Of a DNA stretch of 64,000 nt, positions 2,854 through 64,000 are shown in pieces. The stretch is from an uncultured Muribaculaceae bacterium (GTDB taxonomy: Bacteria > Bacillota_I > Bacilli_A > RF39 > UBA660): the NCBI GenBank assembly GCA_964371025.1, contig CAYJKH010000001.1, positions 2,077 to 66,076 of the forward strand. Direction: 5' to 3'. The position numbers were made by a program, and so were the translations under genes. Within the stretch, counting starts at the first letter, position 1. The number at the start of each line of letters is the position of its first letter. Under the pieces are notes generated by a model. It had not been told where the DNA came from. It did no database searches and saw only the letters and a list, made by a program, of their open reading frames with translations.

Positions 2854-2940
2854 ACACTTTTTTCTAAAATAAATGTAAAACTATTGATAGAAAAAAAAAT
2901 ATATGTTATTCTTAATAAGAATAAAGGATAGGTGAAGAGG

Positions 2941-3525: not shown

Positions 3526-3555
3526 AAATAAATAAAAAAGAGAGGAATTATAATT

Positions 3556-4146
3556 ATGAAAACAGAAAGAAATTTAAAAATATTAGTAATAGCAGCTATT
3601 ACTATAGCAATTGGAGGATTATCAATTGGATTTGCTGCATTTAGTAGAACACTAACAATTACAGGAGCAGAGGCTACAGTTAATAGTTCAAGTTGGGATG
3701 TACACTTTGAAAATTTAGTACCATCAACTACAGGAACAGCTACTACTACTGGAGGGTCTATCACACCAACTAATTCTACTAGTATTACAGGAATTGATAT
3801 GACACTTACATCTCCTGGAGATTCAGTAACTTATACTTTTGATGTAGTAAATGGTGGAGATTTTGATGCAATTGCTACTACTCTTAATATTGATACACCA
3901 ACATGTGTAGGGTCAGGAGTAAACGCAACAGTTGATGCAACAAATGTATGTAATAATTTAGAGTATACGTTAACTTATGCTGACGGATCAGATATTTTAA
4001 CTACACCTAGTTTAACAACAGCAGAAGGTACAAAAAGTATGAAATTAACATTAACTTATTCTAATGCTATAACAGCTGATCAATTACCAGCTTCAGCAGT
4101 TACAGTTTCAGATTTAAATGCATCAATTTTATATTCTCAAAACTAA
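3556..4146 (+). CDS. small exported protein, paralog B, with AAFS motif after the signal h-region (SipW-cognate-like)
   Basis: MKTERNLKILVIAAITIAIGGLSIGFAAFSRTLTITG: h-region followed by AAFS, reminiscent of the TasA/CalY AAF(N/S)D SipW-cognate signal; SSWDVHFENL block shared with paralog A; RBS GAGAGGA. Confidence 0.55.
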   Translation: MKTERNLKILVIAAITIAIGGLSIGFAAFSRTLTITGAEATVNSSSWDVHFENLVPSTTGTATTTGGSITPTNSTSITGIDMTLTSPGDSVTYTFDVVNGGDFDAIATTLNIDTPTCVGSGVNATVDATNVCNNLEYTLTYADGSDILTTPSLTTAEGTKSMKLTLTYSNAITADQLPASAVTVSDLNASILYSQN

Positions 4147-4240
4147 TATAAAATAAAATTAAGTAGGTGATAGTATTAAAAAGAGCTATATAAAAATTTT
4201 TCTACTATTTAGTACATTACTAGGATTAATATTAGCTAAT

Positions 4241-5305
4241 ATGTTTCTTTTTAAAAATGAAAACATATATATAATAGCTTCTGTAATAGCTCTTTTTTTA
4301 CTTTTAACAAAAGTATTAATTGGGATTGAAAGAAATAGAAGTAGATTAAAAAGTGAAGCAGTAATGAATGTATTTATATACGTAATGCTTTATCATATTA
4401 TATTATATATTTTAGGTATTTTTATAGGATTTACTAAATCACCTTATAGTTTTTCTATTATAAATTTAATTAGAAATATTACTCCAGTTTTATTAATAAT
4501 TGGATTAACAGAAGTATTTAGATATGCAAATGTAATTAAGAGTGAAAAAAGTAATAAATTATTATTATTTGTAACTATTGTTTTAATAATGTTAGATATT
4601 ACAGTTAAAACAAGTATGTATAATTTAGATGTAAGTACTAATTTATTAGAAATAGCATCTTTAGTAATATTACCAGCTATTGCAAATAATATTTTTTTAG
4701 GATATTTGGCGCTTTATTTTGGATGGGCTCCAGCTATATTATATAGAGTATTAATGGAAATACCGGAATATATAATTCCTATTTTACCAAATACTAATGA
4801 ATATTTAGATGCAATAGTAACCTTTTTATTTCCACTATTATTATTACTGCTATTTTATAGACTATTAAATAGAGATAAAAAAGATAAAAGTCCACTTAAG
4901 AAAAACTATTTTGGAATAGTAGTTACTAGTGTTTTAGTTATTATTACAGTATTTACAGTTGGTTTAACTAGTGGGTTATTTAAATATTATATGATAAGTA
5001 TAGGTTCAGGCTCGATGGAACCAAATATTTATGTGGGGGATTCAATAATTGTAAAAAAAGAAGATAATTTAAAAAATATTGAAATAGATGATATATTAGT
5101 TTTTAATCATAATAATTCTACAGTTGTTCATAGAGTAACTAGAATTATGGAAAAGAATAGTAGTTATGAATTTATAACAAAAGGAGACAATAACGAAGAA
5201 GAAGATAACTGGGTTGTTTCTGAAAAAGATGTTATAGGGACTGCAGAATTAAAAATAAGATACATTGGATATCCTACCATATGGTTAAATGAAAAGATTA
5301 ATTAG
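4241..5305 (+). CDS. sipW: signal peptidase I, SipW/archaeal-eukaryotic type (S26B), fused to a ~230-aa N-terminal polytopic membrane domain
   Basis: C-terminal ~120 aa carry all SipW boxes: GSGSMEP (catalytic Ser), VGDSIIV, VVHRVTRI (catalytic His), KGDNNEEED. N-terminal two-thirds is very hydrophobic with multiple predicted TM helices. Confidence 0.8.
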   Translation: MFLFKNENIYIIASVIALFLLLTKVLIGIERNRSRLKSEAVMNVFIYVMLYHIILYILGIFIGFTKSPYSFSIINLIRNITPVLLIIGLTEVFRYANVIKSEKSNKLLLFVTIVLIMLDITVKTSMYNLDVSTNLLEIASLVILPAIANNIFLGYLALYFGWAPAILYRVLMEIPEYIIPILPNTNEYLDAIVTFLFPLLLLLLFYRLLNRDKKDKSPLKKNYFGIVVTSVLVIITVFTVGLTSGLFKYYMISIGSGSMEPNIYVGDSIIVKKEDNLKNIEIDDILVFNHNNSTVVHRVTRIMEKNSSYEFITKGDNNEEEDNWVVSEKDVIGTAELKIRYIGYPTIWLNEKIN

Positions 5306-5319
5306 AAAGGGTTTATAAT

Positions 5320-6444
5320 ATGGCAAAAAAGATAACGTATAAAAGTAATGATAAAACATTTCATGTGCATTTGAGTTCAAAAAGAATAAGGAAATCAATT
5401 AAATTTGGATTTTTTCTTGTTGCGTCTATAATTTTTGTTGTATTATTTGCATTTTTCATTCTTAAATTAATTAGCACAAGTAATTCAGTATCAGTAGTTA
5501 CTTTTAATGAAAAAGGAACGGAAACATATAGAGTTTACTTAAAAGAAAATGATGACTATAAATCTGATTATCTAGGAGAAGATATGGAATATATATCATC
5601 TCTAATTGATTATGTTCAGTTTGATTATAATTATCAGTTGCACTCAAAAAATGAATTAACAATGGATTATAATTATAAAATTACAGCGGATTTAATTATT
5701 GCCAATAAAGAAGCTAATGGTAAGTACTTATATAAAGATACTTATGAATTAGAAAAAGGTAGTAAAAAAATAACTGATAAACAACTAATGATTTCAGATA
5801 GTGTTGAAATAGATTATGATAAATTTAATAAAATTTCTGAAGATATAAAAAAAGAACATGGTTTATATGCAGATAGTTATTTAGAAGTTAAATTTGAAAT
5901 GATTAATGACTCTACATCAAATGACGTGGATAATTCATTAAAAACAACTAATTCGTTGCTTGCAACTATCCCTTTAAATGAAATTACAATAGCAATTAGT
6001 ACTGCATCTAATACTTTTGATGAATCAAGAACAATTTCAAGAAAGAACTTAGAAGAGTTAATAAATTTGTATATGATTTTAGCAGGAGCATCATTCTTAT
6101 TAGCAGTAGTAAATGCATCTTTAGCAACTTATGTTTATCAAAAATATTATTCTAAAAAAGATATTTACTTAGCAACAGTAAAAAAATATTTAAGAGAATA
6201 TGATAGATTAATTGTTTCAAGTAAACAACCAGCTATTAATGAAAAACATTTTGAAAATAAAATAAGAGTAATGTCTATAGAGGAGTTAATTGATGCCCAT
6301 GATTCATCAGGAGCACCAATTATATACTATGAAGTAGAACCTAATGAAAAAAGTTACTTTGTTATTATAGATAATACAACATTATATAAATTAACAATTT
6401 CTAGAACATGGTTAGAAAATAATAAAAAAGACCCTATCGTTTAG
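5320..6444 (+). CDS. hypothetical membrane-anchored protein (two predicted TM segments), co-oriented with sipW
   Basis: N-terminal signal-anchor FGFFLVASIIFVVLFAFFIL and a second hydrophobic segment near residue 250; no recognisable domain. Confidence 0.45.
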   Translation: MAKKITYKSNDKTFHVHLSSKRIRKSIKFGFFLVASIIFVVLFAFFILKLISTSNSVSVVTFNEKGTETYRVYLKENDDYKSDYLGEDMEYISSLIDYVQFDYNYQLHSKNELTMDYNYKITADLIIANKEANGKYLYKDTYELEKGSKKITDKQLMISDSVEIDYDKFNKISEDIKKEHGLYADSYLEVKFEMINDSTSNDVDNSLKTTNSLLATIPLNEITIAISTASNTFDESRTISRKNLEELINLYMILAGASFLLAVVNASLATYVYQKYYSKKDIYLATVKKYLREYDRLIVSSKQPAINEKHFENKIRVMSIEELIDAHDSSGAPIIYYEVEPNEKSYFVIIDNTTLYKLTISRTWLENNKKDPIV

Positions 6445-8152: not shown

Positions 8153-8226
8153 AATAGTGAATAATATTTGCTATTTTTTTAGTTTTATGTTATTATATAG
8201 ACCAAGTTTATTGCATGGAGGAAATT

Positions 8227-9477
8227 ATGAAAAAAATGTTTAAAATATTATTAATTATCGTTGTTTTTACAACAACTTTTATTGGAGTTATTCCAAGTGT
8301 TAGTGCTAAAGCACCAGCATCAGTTCAAGCAGGGGATGCAGAAAGATTAACACCACATATTGGAGGAGTTTCTTTTTCATATAAAACTTTATCTAATGGA
8401 GAATATGCTTATTGTTTAGAAGTAAAAAAAGGATTAACGCAAAATATAAAAGCAAATTTAGTAGGGGAATTAGATGCTGGATATGCATATATAGTAGCAA
8501 ATGGTTATCCAAATAAAAAAATAACTGGTAACAGAAACTACGATTACTCTATTACTCAAATAGCATTATGGCTTTATATGGACGAAACTAGTGGAACAGA
8601 TAATTTAGCATCTGGTTTTAGAAACAATGCAAGTGATCCTTATAATTTAATGTCACATGTTATCAAATTAACAGATGCAGCAAAAGCAGCAAAAGCAAAA
8701 GGGTATGCTAAACCTAGTATCAGTCTTTCAACACCTACATCTAGTATGAGCATTAGTGAAGATGGTAAATATTTTATTTCTAATCCTATAACACTAGGAG
8801 GAACATCTGTTTCATCGCCTAAAGTATCAATTGTAAGTAGCCCAGAGGGGACTATTATTACAGATGAAGAAGGAACTGAAAAAAAAGAATTTAAAATAGG
8901 GGATAAGTTTCTTTTAAAAACACCAGTAGAAAGTGTTACAGGAGAAGACGTTACCATTAATATTAAAACAAGTGGAACAGGTACAGTATATAAGGCTTAT
9001 GAATATAGCCCGGTAAATAATAATATGCAAAATATTGTACCACAATTAATTCCTGTAAGTACTGCAGTAGCAGATGAGGCTAGTTTTGACTTTTCAACAA
9101 CAACTGTTGTTATAAATAAAACGGATGCCTCAACTAAAAATTATTTAGCTGGAGCTGAATTAGTTATCAAAAAAGACGGGGTTGAAATAGATAGAATAAC
9201 TACAACAGGGGAAAAAATAGAAATTAAAAATTTAGGATATGGTAATTATACTATTGAAGAAGTTAAAGCACCTAATGGATATGAATTAACTACTAAAATA
9301 TATGAGTTTACTTTATCAGAGGAAAATCCTACGGCAGAAGTTACGATTGAAAACTTTCCAACTATAGAAGTACCAAATACTAGCAGTAGTTCAACATTAC
9401 TTCTATCATTAATAGGGTTTTTAATAATTTCATTCTCAGCAGGAATTATTTATAGACATGCAAAAGCAAAAAACTAA
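8227..9477 (+). CDS. cell-wall-anchored adhesin with thioester domain (TED) and CnaB-like domain; non-canonical sorting signal VPNTS
   Basis: Signal peptide. Cys in YAYCLEVKKG paired with the Gln motif SITQIALWLYMDE (TQxA(I/L)W thioester hallmark). C-terminal TIEEVKAPNGYEL (CnaB-like). C-terminus VPNTS + hydrophobic stretch + RHAKAKN. Start at ATG 8227 behind GGAGG. Confidence 0.7.
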   Translation: MKKMFKILLIIVVFTTTFIGVIPSVSAKAPASVQAGDAERLTPHIGGVSFSYKTLSNGEYAYCLEVKKGLTQNIKANLVGELDAGYAYIVANGYPNKKITGNRNYDYSITQIALWLYMDETSGTDNLASGFRNNASDPYNLMSHVIKLTDAAKAAKAKGYAKPSISLSTPTSSMSISEDGKYFISNPITLGGTSVSSPKVSIVSSPEGTIITDEEGTEKKEFKIGDKFLLKTPVESVTGEDVTINIKTSGTGTVYKAYEYSPVNNNMQNIVPQLIPVSTAVADEASFDFSTTTVVINKTDASTKNYLAGAELVIKKDGVEIDRITTTGEKIEIKNLGYGNYTIEEVKAPNGYELTTKIYEFTLSEENPTAEVTIENFPTIEVPNTSSSSTLLLSLIGFLIISFSAGIIYRHAKAKN

Positions 9478-10117
9478 TAAAAGAAAAGAATTCTCCCCAA
9501 ACACTATAGCAATATTTGGTTCAATATTAGCTATTTTAGGAGGATTTTTTCTTTCATATAATTATTTAGAAGAAAAAAAAATATATGCTCATGATCAAAT
9601 GGGGAATTTATTATACAAAGAGGAAGAACCAAAAGAAACTGTTGTAGAAGAAAAAGAAGAGGAAGTAGAACCTGTTCAAGAAGAAGTAAAAGTAGAAACT
9701 ATTGTTAACAAAAATGAATATTTAGGGTATTTAGAGATACCAAAAATTAATTTATTAAAAGGTTTTTATGATAAAACTTCTCCACTAAATGATGTGGAAA
9801 AAAATATTATGGTAATGCCAGAATCGTCATATCCGGATGTTGACCGAGGAAACTTAATTATTTCAGGTCACTCTGGAACAGGGTGGAAAGCATTTTTTGA
9901 CAACTTAGAAAAGCTTAATAAAGGTGATGAGTTAATTGTTAAATATAATAACAAAAAGTATACATACCAACTTACTAATATCTATGAAGTAGAAAAAGAT
10001 GGAACTGTTGCAATATATCGTAATTATAATAAAACAACTTTAACTTTAATCACGTGTACAAATAATATAGACACTTCACAAAGTATTTATATAGCAGAGT
10101 TAATATCTGTAGAATAA
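9458..10117 (+). CDS. sortase (TLxTC catalytic motif)
   Basis: N-terminal TM, YLGYLEIPKINL, active-site His in LIISGHSG, catalytic Cys in TLTLITCTNN; immediately downstream of the TED adhesin. Confidence 0.8.
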   Translation: MQKQKTNKRKEFSPNTIAIFGSILAILGGFFLSYNYLEEKKIYAHDQMGNLLYKEEEPKETVVEEKEEEVEPVQEEVKVETIVNKNEYLGYLEIPKINLLKGFYDKTSPLNDVEKNIMVMPESSYPDVDRGNLIISGHSGTGWKAFFDNLEKLNKGDELIVKYNNKKYTYQLTNIYEVEKDGTVAIYRNYNKTTLTLITCTNNIDTSQSIYIAELISVE

Positions 10118-53521: not shown

Positions 53522-53551
53522 ACTTATACATTTTATGTATAAGTTTTTTTG
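53522..53551 (+). terminator. rho-independent terminator
   Basis: ACTTATACA-tttta-TGTATAAGT followed by T7. Confidence 0.7.
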
Positions 53552-53679
53552 TACAAATTTTTACTGTAAAGTTTACTGTTTGATAAATTATAAATCTATT
53601 GAGTATATAGTGATTTCAAAATTGATTTACACTCTATTTAGAACTTTTTCAAAAAAAGAAAACAATAAATCAATCCTTA

Positions 53680-53708
53680 TTGACATCCATTAAAATAATA
53701 GATACAAT
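53680..53708 (+). promoter_or_regulatory. consensus sigma-A-type promoter (TTGACA-17 nt-TACAAT) driving the 53829-58329 cluster through a ~115-nt leader
   Basis: TTGACA at 53680-53685, 17-nt spacer, TACAAT at 53703-53708; no ORF between promoter and 53829. Confidence 0.6.
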
Positions 53709-53828
53709 ATATTTGTATATTATAGAGAGAGTAGCAAAGTCAGATAGACTACTATAATCTAAATGCTATATATTATTATATTGTCTATACTAATATACTA
53801 AAAATCTTTAAACAAAGGATATAAGTGT

Positions 53829-54527
53829 ATGAATGAAAAAATTAACGTAAAAGCAACTAAAGTAGGAACAAGAAAAAAAATTGTTAAAATTGTAAAGATA
53901 ATATTATTAATAATAGTGTTTATATTGTTAGTATTGTATTTGGTAATGGGAGTCATCTATAATAGTGGCAATTTCAGTATAACACTTGATAAGAACTTGT
54001 ATTTTGATAAAGGAATAATCATTTATGATGATCCTGATTACAAAGTATATCGTTCTGAATTGTTTGCAGAAACTATTCCAACATTTGATAATATATCAGG
54101 TAAGTGGATTCCAGAAGATGTTTGGGCTGGTAATGGTTCGAATAACGGAAAGAATTATATGGCTTATTCATTTTATATGGAAAATGAAGGTAAAGATCCT
54201 GCGAATATTTGGGCGGAAGTAATTATTGATGATGTTATAAAAAATCTAGATGAGGCAGTTAGAGTCCGTGTGTATAAGGATGGGGAGTACAATACTTATG
54301 CTAAATTGGGCGCTAATGGGGAAGCGGAACCTGAAACAGAATCTTTTTATAATGACAAGTATATTATGCTTGAAGAAGTAAAAGATTTTAAACCAGGAGA
54401 TATAATCAAATATACGGTAGTTGTTTGGTTAGAAGGTGCTGACCCAGAATGTACTGATAACATTTTAGGTGGAGAGATTAAATTTCATATGAACTTTAAC
54501 TCAGAATTTGTCGAAGAAGAAAAATAA
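53829..54527 (+). CDS. hypothetical membrane-anchored protein, first gene of exported-paralog cluster
   Basis: Basic N-terminus (KATKVGTRKKIVKIVK) + TM (IILLIIVFILLVLYLVMGVIY), then a ~190-aa extracytoplasmic domain with an acidic tail; RBS AAGGA. Confidence 0.45.
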   Translation: MNEKINVKATKVGTRKKIVKIVKIILLIIVFILLVLYLVMGVIYNSGNFSITLDKNLYFDKGIIIYDDPDYKVYRSELFAETIPTFDNISGKWIPEDVWAGNGSNNGKNYMAYSFYMENEGKDPANIWAEVIIDDVIKNLDEAVRVRVYKDGEYNTYAKLGANGEAEPETESFYNDKYIMLEEVKDFKPGDIIKYTVVVWLEGADPECTDNILGGEIKFHMNFNSEFVEEEK

Positions 54528-54541
54528 AAGGAGAGAGTGTT

Positions 54542-55789
54542 ATGAACAAACATAGTCAAAAACGTAGTCGTAAGATTAAAAAATTAGTTTTAGTTACTGT
54601 TTTATGTGCTGTTTTACTTGGTGTATCTACATATGCATGGTTTATCGGTATGAAAAAAGTAAATGTTACTAGTTTTGATATCAAAATCGCTACAACTGAA
54701 AGCTTACAATTATCATTAAATGGTACGGCTTTCGCGCAAGATATTGCAATATCTGAAACAACTTACAATGTTGAAACAGATACTACAAATCCACAAAATG
54801 CTGTTTATGCAGGGCATACAAACAGTTGGGGAGATTTAGTACCTGTATCTACTGTTGGAGTTATTGATACAACAGCATCAAGACTTACAATGTATGAAAA
54901 AGGAAGTTTAACAACTTCACCAGGTGGTTATAGAATTATGGCCAGTGAAGTAACAAATAAGGGAGCAGCTGAAGCTAAAGGTTATGTTGCATTTGATTTA
55001 TTTGTTAAAAACTTGTCTGGAGAAGAATATTATGTTGAAAACAATCAACTTAATGAAGAAGCAATTTATTTAAATATTGATTCTAAAGTTGAAGGAAGTG
55101 GAACTACAACAGGAGCTGAAAACAGTGGGATTGAAAACTCAATTAGAGTTGCATTTGCACAAATTGGTCGTGTAGAAGCTACTACAACTACAGCATCAAC
55201 TATTACAGGAATTAGCTGTTCTACAGCTGGAGAAGTTACTGGAATTTGTAGAAATGCTACAATCTGGGAACCAAATGATACTAAACATGTACAAAATGCT
55301 ATTAACTGGTATGATACTTCATGTGCATCAAGAACAGGAGCAGATATTACTGCGGCAGCTTCATACGGAGCATTCGGATCTTGTGCAGAGGTTACTACAA
55401 CAGGAGCAGTGCCAACTTATGCAGTAGCTCAAGAAATTGATTATACTGATCAAGTTGATGCTTATGATGGAGCAGCATTAAATGGATATACTGGAAGTAC
55501 TACTTCTGGACATTTACAAGCTATGGATTACTTTACTGATACTGAAAGAGATTTATCAGGAACTGCACGTCCAACATTCATGACGTTAGCGCCAAATAGT
55601 ATTACTAAAGTAAGAGTTTATATTTACTTAGAAGGTCAAGATATTGATAATTATGATTTTGCTTCATTAGGAGAAAAAATCACTATGAACTTCGGATTTA
55701 CTAAAGAAAGATTCTTCGGTGAAGATATTGGATATACAGGAACACCTACATTACCAGATGATGTAGTAGAAGCTGAACAAAATCCATAA
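54542..55789 (+). CDS. large exported protein with SipW-cognate-like signal peptide (TasA/camelysin-like candidate fibre subunit), paralog 1
   Basis: Basic N-terminus, h-region LVLVTVLCAVLLGVSTYAWFIGMKK with YAWF right after it (compare TasA TWAAFND, CalY TFAYFSD). Conserved C-terminal block GTARPTFMTLAPNSITKVRVYIYLEGQDIDNYDFASLG...NFGFTKERF. Conserved Cys pairs; acidic C-terminal tail. Confidence 0.6.
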   Translation: MNKHSQKRSRKIKKLVLVTVLCAVLLGVSTYAWFIGMKKVNVTSFDIKIATTESLQLSLNGTAFAQDIAISETTYNVETDTTNPQNAVYAGHTNSWGDLVPVSTVGVIDTTASRLTMYEKGSLTTSPGGYRIMASEVTNKGAAEAKGYVAFDLFVKNLSGEEYYVENNQLNEEAIYLNIDSKVEGSGTTTGAENSGIENSIRVAFAQIGRVEATTTTASTITGISCSTAGEVTGICRNATIWEPNDTKHVQNAINWYDTSCASRTGADITAAASYGAFGSCAEVTTTGAVPTYAVAQEIDYTDQVDAYDGAALNGYTGSTTSGHLQAMDYFTDTERDLSGTARPTFMTLAPNSITKVRVYIYLEGQDIDNYDFASLGEKITMNFGFTKERFFGEDIGYTGTPTLPDDVVEAEQNP

Positions 55790-55883
55790 TATAAATTATA
55801 GATTAAAGTTAATATTATATATAAATATACTATAAGTTACTTATTATAAGTAGCTTATAGATATAAATTTGAAAGGGAATAAT

Positions 55884-57170
55884 ATGAAAAAAAGAACAAA
55901 CACTAAAAAATTAAGAAGAACTATTATGGTATTCTTATTATGTGCTGTTGTATTAGGTGTATCTACGTATGCATGGTTCATCGGTATGAAAAAAGTAAAT
56001 GTTAGTAGTTTCGATATTAATATTGCTACTACTGAAGGTTTATTCTTATCAATGACTGGTGAAGAAGATTCATGGAAATATACTTTAGATGCAGCGGGTG
56101 CTGATGTTACAGCTTACCCAAATAATTCTAATACATGGGCAACAGATGGTTTAATTCCAATGTCATCAATTGGTGATATGGATTCTACATCTTCAACTAT
56201 GATGATGTATGAAAAAGGAAGTTTAACAGCTTCACCTGGTGGGTACCGTTTACTTGCTAGTAGAGTAGAAAATTATGCAGCAACTGCAGATGGTTTTGAA
56301 GTAGGAAAAGGTTATGTAGCTTTTGACTTATTCATTAAAAACTTATCTGGAGAAGAATATTATACAGATAATGAGCCTCTAAATGAAGAAGCAATTTACT
56401 TAAATACTAACTCATCTGTAGGAGTAGCTACAACTGGTGGAGTTGCTAATACAGGAATTGAAAATTCAGTTAGAGTTGCATTTGCACAAATTGGTCGTGT
56501 TGAAGCTACAACTACAAATGAAACAAATATTCAAGATATTGAATGTTCTGATGTGGCAGCTGATACTGATCAAGCTCAAGTAACTGGTATTTGTAGAAAT
56601 GCAGCAATTTGGGAGCCAAATGATACTGCACATAATGCAAATGCAATTGGTTGGTACAACACTGCGTGTGATCCAAGAAATACTGATGGAACAGATGTAA
56701 CTGATCCTTCATCATTTGATGAATCTGGAACTTGTGGAACTGTAGCAAATGGAACAGCTAATAAAACTTATGCAATTAGTAGAGAAATCAATATTGCTGA
56801 TAATGTAGATGTATATGATGGATTAGAATATAATACATATGAAGCTAATACTAATACATATGATGAATATCTTGCAGCTGATGCAGCAGCAAAAGCTGAT
56901 ATGAAATTAGTAGATTTCGATGCATTTACTGATACAGAAAAAAATCTTACAGGAACTGCACGTCCAACATTTATGACGTTAGCTCCAAACAGTATTACTA
57001 AAGTAAGAGTATATGTATACTTAGAAGGACAAGATGTTGATAACTATGATTTTGCATCATTAGGAGCAGCAATCTCTGTTAACTTTGGATTTACTAAAGA
57101 AAGATTTGAAACAAGTGATATTACTGATTACGATGGACCAGCTCCAGTTGTGGGTACTGACACTCCTTAA
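55884..57170 (+). CDS. large exported SipW-cognate-like protein, paralog 2
   Basis: The N-terminal 45 aa and the C-terminal ~70 aa are near-identical to paralog 1 (VLGVSTYAWFIGMKKVNV...; GTARPTFMTLAPNSITKVRVYVYLEGQDVDNYDFASLG). The central region has diverged. Start at ATG 55884 behind AAGGGA. Confidence 0.6.
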   Translation: MKKRTNTKKLRRTIMVFLLCAVVLGVSTYAWFIGMKKVNVSSFDINIATTEGLFLSMTGEEDSWKYTLDAAGADVTAYPNNSNTWATDGLIPMSSIGDMDSTSSTMMMYEKGSLTASPGGYRLLASRVENYAATADGFEVGKGYVAFDLFIKNLSGEEYYTDNEPLNEEAIYLNTNSSVGVATTGGVANTGIENSVRVAFAQIGRVEATTTNETNIQDIECSDVAADTDQAQVTGICRNAAIWEPNDTAHNANAIGWYNTACDPRNTDGTDVTDPSSFDESGTCGTVANGTANKTYAISREINIADNVDVYDGLEYNTYEANTNTYDEYLAADAAAKADMKLVDFDAFTDTEKNLTGTARPTFMTLAPNSITKVRVYVYLEGQDVDNYDFASLGAAISVNFGFTKERFETSDITDYDGPAPVVGTDTP

Positions 57171-57199
57171 TCAATAATAAAGAAAACTATATATTGGAT

Positions 57200-57228
57200 A
57201 AAGAGTAATCAAATTACTCTTTATTTAT
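57200..57228 (+). terminator. possible rho-independent terminator/attenuator
   Basis: AAGAGTAAT-caa-ATTACTCTT followed by TTATTTAT (weak U-tract). Confidence 0.45.
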
Positions 57229-57249
57229 ATATATATAATAGGTGGTATT

Positions 57250-58329
57250 ATGGAAGAAAATAAAAATGAAGAGCAAGTAATTGTTATTAAGAAAATAAGG
57301 AAAAGAATGTCAAAGAAAAAGAAATATTTAACAATATTTTATATCTTTTTGCTTACTGTTTTACTAATTGTTACTACTTATGCATGGTTTTCTACAGCAT
57401 TAAATGTTCAAATTAGGGATTTTAATGTAGTAGCAGCCAAAAATAGTGGACTTTCGATATCGTTTGATGCTATTAATTATGATACTTTCCTAGAAATATC
57501 TCGAGAAAATATAATTGAAGATTTAGGAGCTAGATACCCAACTCATACTAATCATTGGTCTGATAATGGACTTGTACCAGTATCTACAAACGGAATAGGA
57601 TCTATTCCAGATAAATTTGATTTTTATTTTACAGATGGAATATATTATTTAAATAATGATAAAGAACAACCATTCTTAAGAACTTTAAAATCAAAAGAAG
57701 ATGATCCTAATCCATATTCATACTTCACGTCATTTGATATATTTTTGAAAAATGAAACAGGTTCTCCTGTACCAGATAATTTATATTTAACAAATGAAAC
57801 AAAAGCTATTTTTAATGGTGAATATTCAGAAGAAATGGATAGTTTATTAAATACTATGCGATTTGGTTTTGTTAAAATAGGATCAGTAGACCATGATACT
57901 CCAGCTACAACAGTTCAAAATATGACATGTATTGGAACTTGTGAGGATGTTATTTATGAACCATATCATACGACACATACTGATTTATCAATTGAAAGAG
58001 CTAAAAAATATGGAATTAATTTAAGAGATGGTTCGGCATTTCCAACATTTGGAATGATTAAAGCAGGTGGTCCAATTATGATGAAAAATGCAGTAAGTGG
58101 TTCCACTAGTTTAGAACCAGAGTATTTTAGATTACAAGAAACATTTAATTCACAAGAATTAAGTCAATCTTTATTTGAAGTGCCAGATGGTGTTACTAAG
58201 GTGAGAGTTTATGCTTGGTTAGAAGCACAAGATATTGACAGTTTAGAGACTAACTCAACAGGGGCAGAGTTGACATTATCAATTGATTTTGAGAAAGATA
58301 CTGCTGGTTGGGAAGCATTTAATTATTAA
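57250..58329 (+). CDS. exported SipW-cognate-like protein, divergent paralog 3
   Basis: Signal LTIFYIFLLTVLLIVTTYAWFSTALNV (YAWF). The C-terminal VTKVRVYAWLEAQDIDSLE...LSIDFEKD parallels the paralog 1/2 C-block. CxxxC pair (CIGTC). RBS AGGTGG. Confidence 0.55.
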   Translation: MEENKNEEQVIVIKKIRKRMSKKKKYLTIFYIFLLTVLLIVTTYAWFSTALNVQIRDFNVVAAKNSGLSISFDAINYDTFLEISRENIIEDLGARYPTHTNHWSDNGLVPVSTNGIGSIPDKFDFYFTDGIYYLNNDKEQPFLRTLKSKEDDPNPYSYFTSFDIFLKNETGSPVPDNLYLTNETKAIFNGEYSEEMDSLLNTMRFGFVKIGSVDHDTPATTVQNMTCIGTCEDVIYEPYHTTHTDLSIERAKKYGINLRDGSAFPTFGMIKAGGPIMMKNAVSGSTSLEPEYFRLQETFNSQELSQSLFEVPDGVTKVRVYAWLEAQDIDSLETNSTGAELTLSIDFEKDTAGWEAFNY

Positions 58330-58497
58330 AATAAAAGAATAAATAGAGTGAAAAGGTGGTTATTATGGATAAAGATTCAAGACAAGTTGACTTTGATTTG
58401 TCATTACTAAAATTAGATGAATTAATTAAGTTACATAATGAAATATCGCAGTTTAAGGTATTTCTTAGTGATAAATTAATAGAAGATAAGGAGAGTG

Positions 58498-60120
58498 ATG
58501 ATAATGAATAGTAATTTTTTAAACTATATTTTAGATGATATAGATACAAAAAAGAAAACTCTAGCATCAATGCCTATTAAGACTAAAACAAATATAAAAA
58601 AATATAATGATTTAGTGGATAGTATTTTAAAGTCATATGATGAATATGAAAATAATGTTACTAAATATATAACAGCAAAGAGTAATTCATTTCAAGTTCC
58701 AACAGTTGTTAAAAATAATGATATAGATAATATTAATAACCAAATTAAAGAATTAGAAGAAGCAAAGTTTCTGATTAATCCTTTTAATACTTTTTACGAA
58801 AAGTTAAAATTTGATGAAATGTTATATGAATTAGATTTTTATGGTGATTATGATTTTAGTAATATATATGTTGTATTAGATAAGTTGTTAGATAAATTTG
58901 AAGCTATTGGAGTAAGACTTACTTCAACAGAATTTAATTATACACCATATGTTTATGATTTTATGAGAGCTTTTTTAGAAGTAAGAATAAGCAATAGTTC
59001 GAATTTTGAAAGAGTTACTAAAATATTTGAAGAAATATACTGGACAAACCCTGATTTAGTAAGGCATATCGTATTTAACTTTAAAAAGCTAATTAGAAAA
59101 CATGCTAAAAAATTTGATGCGTATTTAACTGTGTTACAAAAAAAAGTAATTGCTTCTAATAGACTGTCAAGTTATGGTGATTGTATTAGTCGATTAGAGG
59201 ATTTATATATAAGTAAAAATAATATAGATAAAGAAACAATTGAAGATATAGTTAATAAATCATTAAATGGAGAAATTAATATTGCTCTATATTTAGAAGG
59301 CTCTAAATACAGAGATAGTGTAGCAAAAGAATTTAAAGATGACTTAGATTTAAATAATTTAGAAGACTTTAAATTAGTTTGTGATAATTTAGAAAAACTT
59401 AAAATTAATATAGAAGAATTTGCTTATTATAAGAAATTATTACCATTAATTGATTATATTAAAGTTGAGTTTGACAAAACTAGTGAAAATATTACTAAGT
59501 TTGATTCTAAAAGAGTTAAACAAATTGAAAACTTAATTATAGAAAAAGAAAATAAAATGGATAAACTTAATAAAAAAGTTGTTAATCCATCTCGTTTATT
59601 TGGAAAACCAAATGAACTTGAAGTTTCTAAAATTAAAGCAGAATCTTTAAATGTTGCTAAAGAGTTAACTAAAATGTATGAAAAATATGATGAAACATAT
59701 TTTATTGATAAGTTAATAAGAGTTTATTCTACATCAATGACAGTTTCTGACTTTTTGACAGTTTTAAATAGTTTTGAAGCCTTTAAAAGAATTTTACTGA
59801 AAAAAGTATTTAATTTAAAATCAAAAGCAGAGGTAGAAGAGTATGTAGATTGTTTTAATTATTATGTAGGTAATCCTCTTAATATTATTTCAAAAGGGAT
59901 TTTAATATTTGATACTAATGATATTGCTAGAATTATTATTAATAAGTATAGATTAAATAATATTAATATTAATGAAGCAAGTTTAATTAATAGTGATTTG
60001 GAAGACTTTCTAGGAAAAATAAACTTAATGTTAAGAGTATTTATTATTAAAAATAGTGAAATTACAGAAGAGCAAATTTGGTTTAAATCAGAAGTTAAAA
60101 ATAAAATAAAGGGAAATTAA
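58498..60120 (+). CDS. hypothetical cytoplasmic all-helical protein (541 aa), unknown function
   Basis: no TM or signal peptide; no recognisable catalytic motif. Start ambiguous: GTG 58495, ATG 58498 or ATG 58504 behind AAGGAGAG. Confidence 0.5.
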   Translation: MIMNSNFLNYILDDIDTKKKTLASMPIKTKTNIKKYNDLVDSILKSYDEYENNVTKYITAKSNSFQVPTVVKNNDIDNINNQIKELEEAKFLINPFNTFYEKLKFDEMLYELDFYGDYDFSNIYVVLDKLLDKFEAIGVRLTSTEFNYTPYVYDFMRAFLEVRISNSSNFERVTKIFEEIYWTNPDLVRHIVFNFKKLIRKHAKKFDAYLTVLQKKVIASNRLSSYGDCISRLEDLYISKNNIDKETIEDIVNKSLNGEINIALYLEGSKYRDSVAKEFKDDLDLNNLEDFKLVCDNLEKLKINIEEFAYYKKLLPLIDYIKVEFDKTSENITKFDSKRVKQIENLIIEKENKMDKLNKKVVNPSRLFGKPNELEVSKIKAESLNVAKELTKMYEKYDETYFIDKLIRVYSTSMTVSDFLTVLNSFEAFKRILLKKVFNLKSKAEVEEYVDCFNYYVGNPLNIISKGILIFDTNDIARIIINKYRLNNININEASLINSDLEDFLGKINLMLRVFIIKNSEITEEQIWFKSEVKNKIKGN

Positions 60121-60237: not shown

Positions 60238-63200
60238 ATGATGAAAATTGTTAAAACTTATAAAAACTTACCAATAAATAAAAAAATGATTTTAATCGGA
60301 TCATTTATAATTATATGTACATTATTAGTAGTAGCTATTCCCTCGCTTGCTCGCTTTGATAATAGAAATACTTTGTATTCATCATCAGTGTGGGATGGGA
60401 CAACAGCTTCTAAATATAGAAGTGGAACTGGTACCATTAGTGATCCTTATGTTATAGCTAACGGATCGGAGCTTGCTTTCTTTGGGGAAGAGTTGAAAAC
60501 AAAAACTTATCAAGATACATATTTTGTTTTAAATAATGATATAGTTTTAAATGATGGTTTATTTAATTATTCCAAGGAAGAAGGAATTACTTATACATAT
60601 GAAGGAAAAAAATATTTTGTTGATGATAAAACGGGAAAATACTACACTAGTATAAATAAGAGTGGAAGTTATAGTGGTATAGTTAATTTATTTAGTTCTC
60701 TTGACAATTTTAAAGGACACTTAGATGGTAAACATCATAGAATATATGGAACAATGATTAGTAATTTAAAATCTCAAAAAGTAGGATTATTTACTAATTT
60801 AAATGCTGATATAAATGATTTATATGTAGAAAATTCAATAATTAATGGGGGTATTGTTACTGGGGGTATTGCTAGTAATATGAATAATACCAATATTGAT
60901 AATGTTATGTTTGAAGGTAATGTTATTAACAATCAAACTCTTGCTAGTAAAGAAGTAACTACAACGGTAGCTGATAAAGCAATTGAAATTAATGATTATA
61001 ATGTAATAGATACAACAACTTTAACACCTCCTGAAATACCAGAAAATGCTACTTTAGTTAGTGCTAAATTAACAGGTAAATATAAAGTTATTGATAATGA
61101 TGCAGTATTTGTATCATCAGATACTGGAATATTAGAAAACGGAGAATTCACTTTTGATTTGACAAATGATGATTTGTACTCTTTAAACTTAACAATAAGT
61201 TCCCTAGAAACTATAGGAACTGTTGAGTTAACAGATGTTGTTTATACAAAAGTGTATGATGAGAGTGTAGTAGGTGGAATTAGTGGTACTGCTAGTAATA
61301 CTAATTTATTGAATACAATTGTAAAAGGTGGTATATATTCTTCGAATATAGCAGGAGGAATGTTTGGTAACTTTGAAAATCTAATTAATATTGATAGTTC
61401 TTATAATAATGCTTATGTAAGCACTGTTATTGGAGGGGGAATAGTAGGGCTTAATATAAATGATACTTATACCATTGATGTAGTGGATAGTTATAATACT
61501 GGATTAATTAATGGAGGTAAAACTGGAGGAATAGCTGCTAGTTTAACTGGAGTTAATAGTACTGCTAGTTTTGAAAAAGTATTTGATACAAGTGATACTA
61601 ACTTTGCTTTTAATACTGTAGAATTAGAAAATTCATCATTTATAAATGTATTTTATACATCAGGAAGAGCACATGATACATCAGTTGCAACAACAACACC
61701 TGTATTAATTAGCAAAAGTAATTTGATTGATAAAGATTATATGACTACAACATTATTATTTAATGAATTCATATCGTATGATGATGTTAATAATGATGCT
61801 AAAAATAAATGGATATTTGATGGAGAAAATTTACCAGTAATATATATTGATGATGTAATATCTCCAATTGCTTCTATCCATGCAGGATATTATAAATGGA
61901 ATAACTTTGCAAAAAATTTAGACACAATTACAACTAGTAAAGAATTTTCATTTACAATTAAACCAACTGACGAATTAGAAGTTTTAAAAGAAATTAGTTA
62001 TTATGTATCTACTACAGAATTAACAACAGAAGAATTAGAACCATTATTAATTCCTTATGTTGATGTAGTAACATTATCTGAAGAAGGCGAATATATAATA
62101 TATGCTAAAGTAGTAGATAATAATGATCAAGTAACATATATTAATTCTGATATTTTACAAATTGATTTTATGAATAAATCTCATGAAATAAAAGTAGGTA
62201 ATTATTCATATGATGAGTATGTTGAAAGTAATAAATATCAATATTTTGATGATATTATAAATGTTAATATAAGAACAGATGATCAATTATCAAATAACGG
62301 GGATATTAAATACTATATTTCTAATACAATGATGACTTTAGAAGAATTGAAAAATTTAGAAGATTCAAATTTTGCAACATATACTGATACAATTACATTA
62401 GATACAATGGGAACATATGTAGTTTATGCAAGAATTGGAAATGATGCCTCTAATTATATATATATGAATACAGACTACTTAGTATATGATGGATACACAA
62501 CTAATGTAAGTCTTGGAAGAAATAAGAATAGTTATTCAAAAACTTATTCAAAAGTTAGTAATGATTCAATTATAAGAGTAGATTTAGCTTATAATAATGA
62601 AAAAGAAGTAGATAATACTGATATTCATAATTTTGTAAGTAATATTTTGTTACCAGTCGATACTAAAATTACAATGATTGATAACATTACTGGCAAAGTA
62701 TACACGTATGAAGTATCTACTGATGAAGATTTATACGGTTATACAAGTAGTTGTAAAAATATGGGTCCTAGTTGTGAAAATGTAGCAAAATATCCACTAA
62801 CTTTATTTAAAGAAATTGGTACTGCAGTTATGAGTATTCCATATGAAGAACAAACTTATTATACTGATGGAATAGTTAATGAAGATTTTACATTTTTAGT
62901 GGATTTTAAAAATACTAATATTACTGATAATTACGATGAAACTAAATTTTATATGGATTTAACAAATAAAGATGATAAAACTGTTAGACCAGCATTAAAT
63001 ACTAGTTTGAAAACAATAGATATTAAAATGGGTAATAATGAAAGTAGTGTTATTTTAGAAACTCAAAATATAAATCAAGAAATTGTAATTAATAGTGAAA
63101 GTACTACAACAATTCCATTAAGTATTAATACAAATTATAAAGAAGATATATTAAATACAAATTTAGAAGATAAGAAATATGGAATTGCTATTAAAGTAGT

Positions 63201-63897
63201 TGATAGTAATAATAAAATAGTTAGCAAAGAACACTTAAAAGAAATTAAATTTACTTTTAATAATAATTCTTTTGGAATAGCAAATGATAATATAGCAAGA
63301 ATAAATCTTGGGAGTGGATTAAATCAAATAAATGGTAATTTGGTAATTAATACAACGGGAGTAAATACTAATTTAAGTGATGGTAGTTATAAGTTTATAA
63401 TTTCAACTTATACTTCAAGTGATGGATTCTTTTATACTAAAACTAATAATGAAGAAATAACTATTCAAGCACGTGTTAGTAATAATTACTCTAATATAAA
63501 TTACAGTTTTGATTGCTTAACAAATGATTCTATAATTAATAAAACAAGTGAAAATGACAATATATTTAATTATGATATTATTCAAAAAACAGAACTTGCT
63601 AATTCAACATTAAGAGTATCACTTTATAAGAAAGATCAGTTAACTGCATATAATCAGGATTATTCAGTAATTGATTTAAATAAATATATAACCAATGACT
63701 TAGTAAAACATAGCGATAATGTTTATATAGGACTGGATAATTTACTTGAGTATGATGAGACAGATAAATCAATAAATAAGTTTAGCTTAAATTTTGATAA
63801 AAATACACTAGATAAAGGGGGATACAAAGTAGTATTTGATCTTTATAGTGATAATAAAAAGATAGGGACTATTAATAAGTATTTTATAGTTAAATAG
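60238..63897 (+). CDS. very large (1219 aa) membrane-anchored surface protein with GLUG-like beta-helix repeats
   Basis: N-terminal signal anchor (MILIGSFIIICTLLVVAIPSLA). Gly-rich motifs INGGIVTGGIASN, GGISGTASN, GGIYSSNIAGGMFGN, GGGIVGLNIN, GGKTGGIAASLTG, spaced as in GLUG-motif parallel beta-helix proteins. RBS AAGAGGA. Confidence 0.5.
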   Translation: MMKIVKTYKNLPINKKMILIGSFIIICTLLVVAIPSLARFDNRNTLYSSSVWDGTTASKYRSGTGTISDPYVIANGSELAFFGEELKTKTYQDTYFVLNNDIVLNDGLFNYSKEEGITYTYEGKKYFVDDKTGKYYTSINKSGSYSGIVNLFSSLDNFKGHLDGKHHRIYGTMISNLKSQKVGLFTNLNADINDLYVENSIINGGIVTGGIASNMNNTNIDNVMFEGNVINNQTLASKEVTTTVADKAIEINDYNVIDTTTLTPPEIPENATLVSAKLTGKYKVIDNDAVFVSSDTGILENGEFTFDLTNDDLYSLNLTISSLETIGTVELTDVVYTKVYDESVVGGISGTASNTNLLNTIVKGGIYSSNIAGGMFGNFENLINIDSSYNNAYVSTVIGGGIVGLNINDTYTIDVVDSYNTGLINGGKTGGIAASLTGVNSTASFEKVFDTSDTNFAFNTVELENSSFINVFYTSGRAHDTSVATTTPVLISKSNLIDKDYMTTTLLFNEFISYDDVNNDAKNKWIFDGENLPVIYIDDVISPIASIHAGYYKWNNFAKNLDTITTSKEFSFTIKPTDELEVLKEISYYVSTTELTTEELEPLLIPYVDVVTLSEEGEYIIYAKVVDNNDQVTYINSDILQIDFMNKSHEIKVGNYSYDEYVESNKYQYFDDIINVNIRTDDQLSNNGDIKYYISNTMMTLEELKNLEDSNFATYTDTITLDTMGTYVVYARIGNDASNYIYMNTDYLVYDGYTTNVSLGRNKNSYSKTYSKVSNDSIIRVDLAYNNEKEVDNTDIHNFVSNILLPVDTKITMIDNITGKVYTYEVSTDEDLYGYTSSCKNMGPSCENVAKYPLTLFKEIGTAVMSIPYEEQTYYTDGIVNEDFTFLVDFKNTNITDNYDETKFYMDLTNKDDKTVRPALNTSLKTIDIKMGNNESSVILETQNINQEIVINSESTTTIPLSINTNYKEDILNTNLEDKKYGIAIKVVDSNNKIVSKEHLKEIKFTFNNNSFGIANDNIARINLGSGLNQINGNLVINTTGVNTNLSDGSYKFIISTYTSSDGFFYTKTNNEEITIQARVSNNYSNINYSFDCLTNDSIINKTSENDNIFNYDIIQKTELANSTLRVSLYKKDQLTAYNQDYSVIDLNKYITNDLVKHSDNVYIGLDNLLEYDETDKSINKFSLNFDKNTLDKGGYKVVFDLYSDNKKIGTINKYFIVK

Positions 63898-63906
63898 GGA
63901 ATAATA

Positions 63907-64000
63907 TGAAGAAAAGATTAATAATTTTTATGGGTATAGCAACGTTCATCATTTTTGGATTTGGTCTTACATACTCTATGTTTATATCAGATGGTAATTT
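63907..64000 (+). CDS. hypothetical membrane-anchored protein, 5' fragment (runs off window end)
   Basis: MKKRLIIFMGIATFIIFGFGLTYSMFISDGN...; RBS TAGGGA; truncated. Confidence 0.35.

Follow-up and report, generated by a model that had tools for sequence, protein, structure and literature searches.

A conserved gene cluster of uncultured Bacilli that probably encodes a TasA-like extracellular fibre or surface coat with its own SipW-type signal peptidases

Results

A conserved cluster at the end of the window

Genes A, B, C and D, located near the end of the analysed stretch of DNA (64,000 nucleotides, hereafter the window), belong to a conserved cluster of approximately 15 genes (~20 kb), the product of which is probably a TasA-like extracellular fibre or surface coat with its own SipW-type signal peptidases. 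Of the protein scaffolds of Gram-positive biofilms, TasA-type fibres are understood best, and the TasA superfamily has lately been extended to archaea. The cluster comprises A, B/C (one to three pairs), D, s, E, F, t, u, p, W, M, N, w and G and is found in more than 70 species-level genomes, all of them from uncultured gut or rumen Bacilli. The original prediction of four co-oriented genes was confirmed, as all four open reading frames were found on the + strand; however, the unit does not stop at 58329 but goes on through s, which the original prediction had overlooked, E, F and t. The 541-residue E, the 1219-residue F and t all belong to the conserved cluster together with A-D. The features are as follows.

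53522-53551, + strand: terminator-like hairpin (fold -8.4 kcal/mol, z -3.0) followed by a run of seven U (UUUUUUU)
53680-53708, + strand: sigma-70-type promoter TTGACA-17-TACAAT (11/12 match)
53709-53828, + strand: 5' leader of ~115 nt with an AAAGGA ribosome-binding site, read from the sequence
53829-54527, + strand: A, 232 aa, ATG start at 53829
54542-55789, + strand: B, open reading frame of 415 aa
55825-55864, + strand: stem-loop between B and C (-16.4 kcal/mol, z -5.2, 0 of 200 shuffles as stable)
55884 (ATG, 428 aa) or 55869 (TTG, 433 aa) to 57170, + strand: C, open reading frame
57190-57233, + strand: stem-loop and U-rich tract between C and D (-15.2 kcal/mol, z -5.4)
57250-58329, + strand: D, open reading frame of 359 aa
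58356-58511, + strand: s, 51 aa from GTG 58356 or 48 aa from ATG 58365, overlapping the start of E
58495-60120, + strand: E, 541 aa, syntenic in 58 open reading frames of related loci
60238-63897, + strand: F, 1219 aa, exported, with a ...P-S-L-A↓R-F signal and a GSGT.SDPY.I cap
63906-64000, + strand: start of t, cut by the window end, MKKRLIIFMGIATFIIFGFGLTYS↓MFISDGN, following the family consensus

Comparison was made with 79 related loci, the relatives in the genome collection being at 65% identity or less. The gene set is kept in the 79 loci, in an order that varies between genomes by circular permutation (for example, WMNwG-ABCDsEFtup, ABDsEFtup-WMNwG and Ftup-ABCDsE-WMNwG). There are two to seven B/C/D paralogues per cluster, arranged in some loci as B-C-B-C-B-C tandem arrays. 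Beyond t, the relatives encode a degenerate peptidase, two SipW-type peptidases (TIGR02228), a membrane McrB-like NTPase, a DUF2357 protein and another "LAWF" protein. Both W and w pass the TIGR02228 model (60.1 and 78.6 bits vs a cutoff of 51.85), and the catalytic SGSM/GSME and THR/THE boxes of the relatives' cluster peptidases are intact. The possibility that genomes with homologues lack a SipW-type peptidase was checked and does not hold: one or two archaeal-type signal peptidase I genes are co-oriented in the cluster, within +/-10 kb, in 26 of the 79 loci. With the order t-u-p-W-M-N-w-G the peptidases lie a few kb past t, and in relatives with the A-B-C-D-s-E-F-t order p, W and w come next wherever the sequence is long enough (L048, L050, L051, L058, L064, L071, L076 and L077). 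Judging by this gene order, the W and w genes of the present genome would be located just past base 64000.

The original prediction envisaged a split system, with the B/C/D array lacking its own peptidase and being cleaved in trans by the SipW-like peptidase at 4241-5305, some 50 kb away. That enzyme is of the archaeal/SipW type (TIGR02228, 82.2 bits), no second peptidase is visible in the 64 kb, and several relatives carry satellite A-B-C arrays apart from the main cluster (L016, L029, L031 and L062), from which we reason that processing in trans does occur in this group. The claim that no sipW is adjacent stands for the 53-64 kb part of the window, where no TIGR02228-type peptidase was found, but the window closes within the cluster, at t. 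Because A-D are the front part of a larger cluster with SipW-type peptidases of its own, the remote-peptidase arrangement is probably an effect of the window end. Furthermore, the 4241-5305 enzyme is a different paralogue (at least seven membrane segments, 30-39% identity to W and w over ~85 aa) and adjoins its own substrates, two exported ~197-aa proteins, and a DUF5305 partner. Such an arrangement has been described as a self-contained locus type in the AbpX preprint (bioRxiv 10.64898/2026.01.04.697558). When the two adjoining proteins, t197a and t196b (window 2932-4146), were compared with the cluster families by hhalign, no clear relationship was seen. Overall, a split system appears very unlikely.

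Products of the cluster genes

In A, an N-terminal membrane helix of ~23 residues is followed by a predicted beta-sandwich (AF2 pLDDT 79.7), and a conserved motif, G-I-I-Y-N-x-G-N-F-S-I-T-L-D, replaces TYAWF. Its C-terminal ~85 residues are homologous to B/C/D (hhalign probability 63-65%, E ~6e-5), and none of its 930 homologues has a name; we propose that A is a membrane anchor or nucleator. The predicted mature form of B is an acidic beta-sandwich of 383 aa (pI 4.3), proposed to be the major subunit. C, whose ATG start (55884, 428 aa) is the one with a GAAAGGG ribosome-binding site, is a paralogue of B with 58.6% identity and the same STYA↓WF signal (the arrow marks the predicted cleavage site), and D is a divergent paralogue, proposed to be a minor subunit. 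The claimed paralogy of the three was borne out by hhalign (100% for BC vs D). Predicted mature C and D have 398 and 314 aa, respectively, and all three mature proteins are predicted to be acidic (pI 4.0-4.4, 13-15% D+E). More than 2,200 B/C/D-like proteins fall into ~1,600 clusters at 50% identity, and in some members of the family the C-terminus bears an extracellular module (Flg_new_2, DUF6273 or the ALK/LTK glycine-rich domain).

Among the genes that follow, s encodes a small, acidic, conserved cytoplasmic protein (orthologue in 46 open reading frames of related loci). E is presumably cytoplasmic, without a membrane segment, and a 32-member E alignment gave no family match in Pfam, NCBIfam and PADLOC and no PDB match in a profile search. 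F is a GLUG-type surface protein, with GLUG and M26_N domains in distant relatives, and is proposed to be a tip or adhesin component. The t protein is TasA/camelysin-like: PF12389 matches 15 of 31 family members (best E 3.6e-6), and hhalign of t with TasA gives 81% probability and E 1.2e-5, with the cleavage sites aligned.

A SipW-type signal on B, C and D

The originally noted TYAWF after a hydrophobic stretch is present in all three proteins, where a short signal peptide ends in S-T-Y-A↓W-F (...LGVSTYA↓WF in B and C, ...IVTTYA↓WF in D). T30, Y31, A32, W33 and F34 are invariant in the 35-sequence B/C/D family alignment, and STYAWF is kept in at least 80% of 190 B/C/D orthologues. The proteins display the SipW-type signal architecture, namely a basic N-region, a short hydrophobic region and T/S-aromatic-A/S↓x-F/Y, and the claim of such a signal agrees with the match of T-Y-A↓W-F to T-W-A↓A-F of TasA; the TasA comparison site is GGGTWA↓AF, to which the motif was matched by inspection. 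TasA fibre subunits begin at A28, after TWA (PMC9674648), as does PDB entry 8aur, and the aromatic residues of TasA at P2 (W26) and P2' (F) hinder LepB-type cleavage, SipW being the dedicated enzyme (PMC10269814). Other cluster proteins (F, t, u and G) also have sites of the type [ST]-[YFL]-[ASG]↓x-[FY]. Both the cleavage of B/C/D at STYA↓WF and the peptidase responsible are predicted from sequence, and genomic context supports the putative SipW dependence.

Alternatively, B, C and D might stay uncleaved, with a signal anchor and an aromatic YAWF belt at the membrane interface, and form a membrane-tethered, S-layer-like coat instead of a fibre. The AF2 single-chain model agrees with this, showing one continuous helix over residues 3-35, TYAWF included, and aromatic residues at helix ends are common among membrane proteins. 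Fold comparisons give weak evidence for fibre subunits, and B/C/D have neither a cell-wall anchor nor a second membrane segment, their single hydrophobic segment being N-terminal and their C-termini acidic and hydrophilic. However, a hydrophobic stretch of ~15-16 residues after a strongly basic N-region is signal-peptide geometry, in contrast to the long, anchor-like helix of A (~23 residues), which lacks the motif. Positions -1 and -3 always carry the same small residues (A and T), a true TasA-like protein has the motif too, its site aligning with the TasA cleavage site, and the cluster encodes two SipW-type peptidases that appear active. We consider an uncleaved coat unlikely.

Conserved ends, variable cores and transcription signals

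The block GTARPTFMTLAPNSITKVRVY.YLEGQD.DNYDFASLG, claimed to be conserved, was found in B and in C. Conservation is highest in the N-terminal strand of the mature protein and in the C-terminal block, between paralogues and orthologues alike. Gene conversion or diversifying selection had been suggested as the cause of conserved ends and a variable core, but orthologues display the same pattern, and nucleotide identities in the conserved blocks are alike (83-87% for paralogues, 80-87% for orthologues). B-C gene conversion was rejected, since the identity profile mirrors that of orthologues and the ends have no surplus nucleotide identity.

The hairpin at 53522-53551 closes off the upstream gene and is the 5' boundary of the unit. 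Both the TTGACA-17-TACAAT promoter and the ~115-nt leader of the original prediction were found, the promoter being near-consensus (11/12). It is the sole 11/12 match within 52.5-60 kb, although promoter-like sites in the region total 48 vs 56.2 in shuffles and are thus not in excess. Because an 11-12/12 promoter is kept 5' of the A orthologue in 62 of 69 distinct loci, vs 4.6% of random 360-nt windows, the promoter at 53680-53708 is genuine as judged by conservation. The leader is not a known riboswitch, as an Rfam search of the whole window found no family at the gathering threshold. The stem-loop between B and C is possibly an attenuator or mRNA stabiliser, and the one between C and D a possible partial terminator. 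Together, the conserved near-consensus promoter and the stem-loops after B and C would suit abundant structural subunits.

These features also bear on the idea that B, C and D are secreted as binding proteins or enzymes that do not polymerise (for example, glycan-binding modules with host or dietary polymers as targets), for which the SipW route would serve export only. Catalytic and CBM families have no sequence match to them; tandem repetition as B-C-B-C-B-C, a consensus promoter and stem-loops after the genes are typical features of structural subunits made in abundance; and conservation is highest in the first ~20 mature residues, which is expected of a donor strand and unusual for a binding module. 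This idea appears quite unlikely.

Family and fold searches

Scans of A-F and of the 35-member B/C/D alignment against Pfam, NCBIfam and PADLOC gave no match. Membership in the M73/TasA family or TIGR04088 found no support in profile searches of B/C/D: A, B, C and D did not match PF12389 (Peptidase_M73) even at E<=1-10, nor TIGR04088 in NCBIfam at E<=1, and the B/C profile aligned with TasA by hhalign with a probability of 0.2%. Since the two proteins beside the SipW-like gene at 4241-5305 also had no TIGR04088 match (E<=0.01), this model seems insensitive in the lineage. A PDB sequence search with the B/C/D profile returned nothing, and Foldseek found no significant match in PDB.

A-D contain no Pfam domain, including SLH, CWB2 and other wall-binding domains. 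B/C/D did not match SpaA, pilin or Gram_pos_anchor models (Pfam, NCBIfam) and lack a C-terminal LPXTG-type sorting signal with a membrane segment; sortase-pilin and type IV pilin readings were rejected on signal and sorting motifs. PADLOC models had no match in A, B, D, E, F, W, N, w and G. The NTPase domain of M from relatives matches the candidate defence model PDC-M26A, and a defence-island reading was rejected because only this domain resembles a candidate defence protein.

Discussion

As in the tapA-sipW-tasA operon of B. subtilis and sipW-tasA-calY of B. cereus (PF12389), putative substrates are accompanied by an archaeal-type signal peptidase of their own in related loci. Shared with TasA are the residues of the predicted cleavage site (T at P3, an aromatic P2, A at P1 and F at P2') and exported proteins modelled as beta-sandwiches; one gene, t, is a detectable TasA relative, and A may be an accessory anchor/nucleator by analogy with TapA. 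In sequence, B, C and D show no similarity to TasA; they are 1.5-2 times its size, and each cluster has two to seven such paralogues. The cluster, with ~15 genes, also differs from the tasA operon in having two peptidases and a degenerate one, as well as a peptidase fused to a ~550-aa cytoplasmic region; the membrane McrB-like NTPase, the DUF2357 protein, the 541-aa cytoplasmic protein and the 1200-aa GLUG protein are absent from that operon. To our knowledge, no TasA-like system linked to an NTPase module has been described, and the mature subunits (314-398 aa) exceed any characterised TasA-superfamily subunit.

TasA superfamily loci of archaea and bacteria include AbpX, AbpA bundling pili, Tafi, Saci_0406 threads and CanA cannulae, AbpX-like matrix proteins are acidic, and an acidic mature subunit of ~100-350 aa serves as a criterion for the superfamily (bioRxiv 10.64898/2026.01.04.697558). 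By this measure, the pI of 4.0-4.4 and D (314 aa) fall inside, whereas B (383 aa) and C (398 aa) fall outside. Sortase-assembled Gram-positive pili differ in their LPXTG signal, pilin motif and sortase, none of which the cluster has; a sortase at 9458-10117 is part of another locus. Neither the periplasmic chaperone nor the usher of chaperone-usher pili is present, as expected in a Gram-positive-type cell.

We consider it somewhat more probable than the converse that A-D are the promoter-proximal part of a cluster making a TasA-superfamily-like extracellular fibre or matrix by means of the cluster's own SipW-type peptidases. In such a model, B, C and D would leave the cell through Sec on a short basic signal peptide and would be cut at S-T-Y-A↓W-F by the cluster-encoded archaeal-type (SipW-like) enzyme, the aromatic P2 and P2' residues keeping off the housekeeping signal peptidase, as in TasA. 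Cleavage would bare the highly conserved amphipathic N-terminal strand WFIGMK.VNVSSFDI.IA, which might fit into the conserved C-terminal sheet of the following subunit by donor-strand complementation, so that B/C co-polymers would form. A, which has a membrane helix of full length and lacks the cleavage motif, would remain membrane-bound as an anchor/nucleator like TapA, and the tip or minor components would be F (a GLUG beta-helix), D, G, t and u. Polymerisation by donor-strand exchange and the roles of individual proteins are what we infer. Several observations stand against the fibre model: B, C and D have no detectable sequence kinship to TasA/M73, TIGR04088 or any PDB chain; their mature forms are larger than characterised TasA-superfamily subunits; the window shows no peptidase gene of the cluster; and E, s, the McrB-like NTPase and DUF2357 have no role in TasA-type assembly. 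Because these four are foreign to such assembly, the mechanism of the cluster may differ from that of TasA.

It is conceivable, though doubtful, that the cluster encodes an undescribed multi-component surface filament machinery, in which B/C/D, as a new family of large subunits, are freed by the cluster SipW-type peptidases and polymerise through the N-terminal strand with the help of dedicated cytoplasmic and membrane assembly factors. These would be the McrB-like NTPase with its DUF2357 partner, the peptidase-cytoplasmic-domain fusion, the pseudo-peptidase and the E/s pair, and assembly or anchoring would depend on them, in contrast to the chaperone-free TasA, AbpX and cannulae pathways.

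The cluster would add a large, wholly unannotated branch to TasA-type structures. Invariant STYA↓WF substrates together with three peptidase variants would make a clean natural set for studies of SipW-type specificity. These commensals probably owe a major surface structure to the cluster, which would bear on gut adhesion, aggregation and antigenicity.

A conserved promoter and a longer gene unit

The original prediction placed four co-oriented genes behind a TTGACA-17-TACAAT promoter and a leader of ~115 nt, and all of these elements are present.

53522-53551 (+), hairpin and seven U, ending the upstream gene
53680-53708 (+), promoter TTGACA-17-TACAAT, the sole 11/12 match within 52.5-60 kb
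53829-54527 (+), gene A, ORF of 232 aa
54542-55789 (+), gene B, ORF of 415 aa
55825-55864 (+), very stable stem-loop after B (z about -5)
55869-57170 (+), gene C, ORF of 433 aa from TTG, or of 428 aa from the ATG at 55884
57190-57233 (+), very stable stem-loop after C (z about -5), a U-rich tract next to it
57250-58329 (+), gene D, ORF of 359 aa

The region is AT-rich and its count of promoter-like sites is no higher than in shuffles; despite this we accept the promoter as genuine on grounds of conservation: of 69 distinct related loci, 62 have an 11-12/12 promoter ahead of their A orthologue, compared with 4.6% of randomly chosen 360-nt windows. The ~115-nt leader ahead of A matched no Rfam family. 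The ATG of C at 55884 is preceded by a GAAAGGG ribosome-binding site, and the stem-loops after B and C may control subunit stoichiometry by attenuation. The predicted unit of four genes proved too short, as it continues through four further genes to the window end.

58356-58511 (+), s, conserved small gene (48-51 aa), product acidic and cytoplasmic
58495-60120 (+), E, 541 aa, without a membrane segment
60238-63897 (+), F, 1219 aa, exported, signal ending in ...PSLA↓RF (here and below, the arrow marks the predicted cleavage point)
63906-64000 (+), t, beginning only, cut by the window end

Orthologues of s occur in most related loci, and the overlap of its 3' end with the start of E suggests translational coupling. 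Distant relatives of F carry GLUG and M26_N domains. Nine bases past the F stop codon begins MKKRLIIFMGIATFIIFGFGLTYSMFISDGN, which corresponds to the N-terminal end of a family (~180 aa) found 3' of F in relatives. Gene t starts at 63906 and, being cut at the window end, shows that the cluster extends further.

Related loci and the recurring gene set

Homologues of B number more than 2,286 in a set of 5.8 billion proteins (1,624 clusters at 50% identity), none with a Pfam domain or a name, while the best annotation among 930 homologues of A is “hypothetical protein [Bacilli bacterium]”. By tblastn and blastp we mapped 79 loci in gut, rumen and other metagenome-assembled genomes labelled Bacilli, Tenericutes or Mollicutes. 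Several contigs labelled Muribaculaceae (L005, L022, L061, L063, L064, L066, L067, L070, L074) also carry the low-GC, Bacilli-type cluster; these assemblies were probably misbinned or mislabelled.

The recurring set comprises A, one to three B/C pairs, D, s, E, F and t, followed by genes known from the relatives: u (~290 aa), p (~176 aa), W (680-750 aa), M (~510 aa), N (~375 aa), w (~190 aa) and G (~410 aa). Almost all of the cluster proteins are unannotated. Gene order is circularly permuted among loci, for example WMNwG-ABCDsEFtup in L040, ABDsEFtup-WMNwG in L077 and Ftup-ABCDsE-WMNwG in L069, and B-C pairs are tandemly amplified in L011 and L014 (B-C-B-C-B-C). The continuation of the cluster with p, W, M, N, w and G lies at the following positions in three relatives.

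L077, 15241-22697
L069, 15597-20877
L078, 15118-23615

W and w are signal peptidases I of the archaeal/ER type (60.1 and 78.6 bits on TIGR02228, cutoff 51.85), with SipW as the next-best model and with intact Ser and His boxes. In W, the SipW domain is fused to a cytoplasmic region of ~550 aa, whereas p has the W/w-like topology without the SGSM box and is a pseudo-peptidase. M has a membrane anchor, a coiled coil and an McrB-like NTPase domain (PADLOC candidate PDC-M26A, E 3.4e-35), and N carries DUF2357. A SipW-type gene was found in 26 of the 79 loci within the +/-10 kb fetched; of the rest, most break off at one of the cluster genes or consist of satellite A-B-C arrays.

Signal motif and homology of the exported proteins

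The N-termini of B, C and D consist of a basic region, a hydrophobic stretch of ~15 residues and then S/T-T-Y-A-W-F. T30, Y31, A32, W33 and F34 are invariant in an alignment of 35 sequences, and STYAWF is kept by at least 80% of 190 orthologues. This T-Y-A↓W-F site shares its architecture with T-W-A↓A-F of TasA, where aromatic residues at P2 and P2' impede cleavage by the housekeeping LepB-type peptidase and leave it to SipW, the dedicated enzyme (PMC10269814; PMC9674648). The TasA sequence used for comparison is an exact match to PDB 8aur, and the fibre subunit begins at A28. G (410 aa) also bears ...TLA↓WF.

Profile comparison identifies the t family as a true but distant relative of TasA/camelysin. 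PF12389 matches 15 of its 31 members (best E 3.6e-6), a PDB search with the family profile returned TasA chains at E 0.6-0.8, and hhalign to TasA gave a probability of 81% (E 1.2e-5), with GITYS↓KF aligned to the TasA site GGTWA↓AF. B, C and D themselves belong to neither the TIGR04088 nor the TasA/M73 family by any sequence test; in their genomic context and type of signal they behave as substrates of this kind. The SipW-cognate signal originally predicted for them is supported, since the site matches the TasA architecture and the genomes link the family with SipW-type peptidases and a TasA-like gene.

B, C and D are mutually homologous (hhalign 100%), and conservation among them peaks over ~20 residues after the predicted cleavage point and over the C-terminal strands. 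A shares with them its C-terminal ~85 residues, including a V.V.WLEG.D motif (probability 63-65%). It has a long helix with ~23 hydrophobic residues and, where B, C and D have the cleavage motif, a strongly conserved G-I-I-Y-N-x-G-N-F-S-I-T-L-D; both features are consistent with an uncleaved anchor or nucleator. That B, C and D, which keep the cleavage motif, would likewise stay uncleaved as membrane-tethered coat proteins is unlikely.

Two cysteines of B (54542-55789), C226 and C236, are invariant and two more, C261 and C281, are at least 90% conserved, all within the extracellular part of B/C, which suggests two conserved disulfides; these would be notable in gut-derived organisms, presumably anaerobes. 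Four B homologues (P0132, P0178, P0168, P0173) have C-terminal extensions of ALK/LTK glycine-rich, InlB-type B-repeat (Flg_new_2) or DUF6273 type, suggesting extracellular display modules grafted onto the subunit.

Gene conversion or diversifying selection had been proposed from the pattern of divergence between B and C. In their alignment, columns 31-60 and 391-420 are conserved, and columns 61-120 and 271-360 are variable. Each gene shows this identity profile against its L002 orthologue as well, and within the conserved blocks paralogues share 83-87% and orthologues 80-87% of their nucleotides; neither process is supported.

Predicted fold

AlphaFold2 models of B (pLDDT 73.1, pTM 0.76) and A (pLDDT 79.7, pTM 0.72) are beta-sandwiches. 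Structural matches of B include the Saci_0406 thread (5.7), FmlH (5.1), CS17 and CfaB (4.6), the TasA fibre (4.5) and CanX (4.4); those of A include the PorA N-terminal domain (7.7), the PapG pilin domain (6.3), Saci_0406 (5.9), CanX (5.5), TasA and AbpA (both 5.3) and CsuA/B (5.2). The fold is not diagnostic, because carbohydrate-binding and glycosidase accessory sandwiches occur among the matches of both proteins and Foldseek gave no significant match. The modelled fold is compatible with a TasA-superfamily subunit without identifying one. Secreted binding proteins that do not polymerise are an improbable alternative.

Location of the processing peptidase

The original prediction had B, C and D processed in trans by the peptidase at 4241-5305, about 50 kb away, in a novel split organisation. 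The split most likely arises from where the window ends: the order A-B-C-D-s-E-F-t is that of the main cluster, and in relatives with this order u, p and W follow t wherever sequence suffices (L048, L050, L051, L058, L064, L071, L076, L077). We infer that W and w of this genome lie beyond base 64000. Satellite arrays (A-B-C or A-B-D-E alone) away from the main cluster in L016, L029, L031 and L062 imply that some copies must undergo trans processing in those genomes. For the window, which is cut inside the cluster, remote processing is very unlikely, and the 4241-5305 enzyme, with 30-39% identity to W/w over ~85 residues, is a distinct paralogue.

This enzyme, a signal peptidase I of 354 aa with at least seven membrane segments (TIGR02228, 82 bits), belongs to a second, self-contained locus (window 2932-6444 and 8215-10117). 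It is flanked by a DUF5305 protein and two acidic exported proteins of ~197 aa, with signals ending in ...GISYA↓SL and ...SIGFA↓AF and no Pfam or PDB sequence match; a class C-like sortase and a surface-exposed TED (thioester)/SpaA-domain protein are nearby. The locus resembles the bacterial AbpX-type loci of a 2026 preprint, in which a signal peptidase I with multiple membrane segments occurs together with DUF5305 as accessory protein and with LPXTG/sortase anchors (bioRxiv 10.64898/2026.01.04.697558).

A candidate surface fibre cluster

On balance we lean towards A-D being the structural genes nearest the promoter in a SipW-dependent, TasA-superfamily-like cluster for a surface fibre or matrix. 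Circumstantial support comes from the acidic predicted mature proteins (pI 4.0-4.4), the conserved N-strand and C-terminal strands, the tandem B-C pairs, the stem-loops and the extracellular C-terminal modules. Described TasA-type loci have no counterpart of its McrB-like NTPase, DUF2357, E/s, fused peptidase or pseudo-peptidase. In such a fibre, B and C would be the major subunits and D a minor one, A would serve as the anchor, and F could be a tip or adhesin component.
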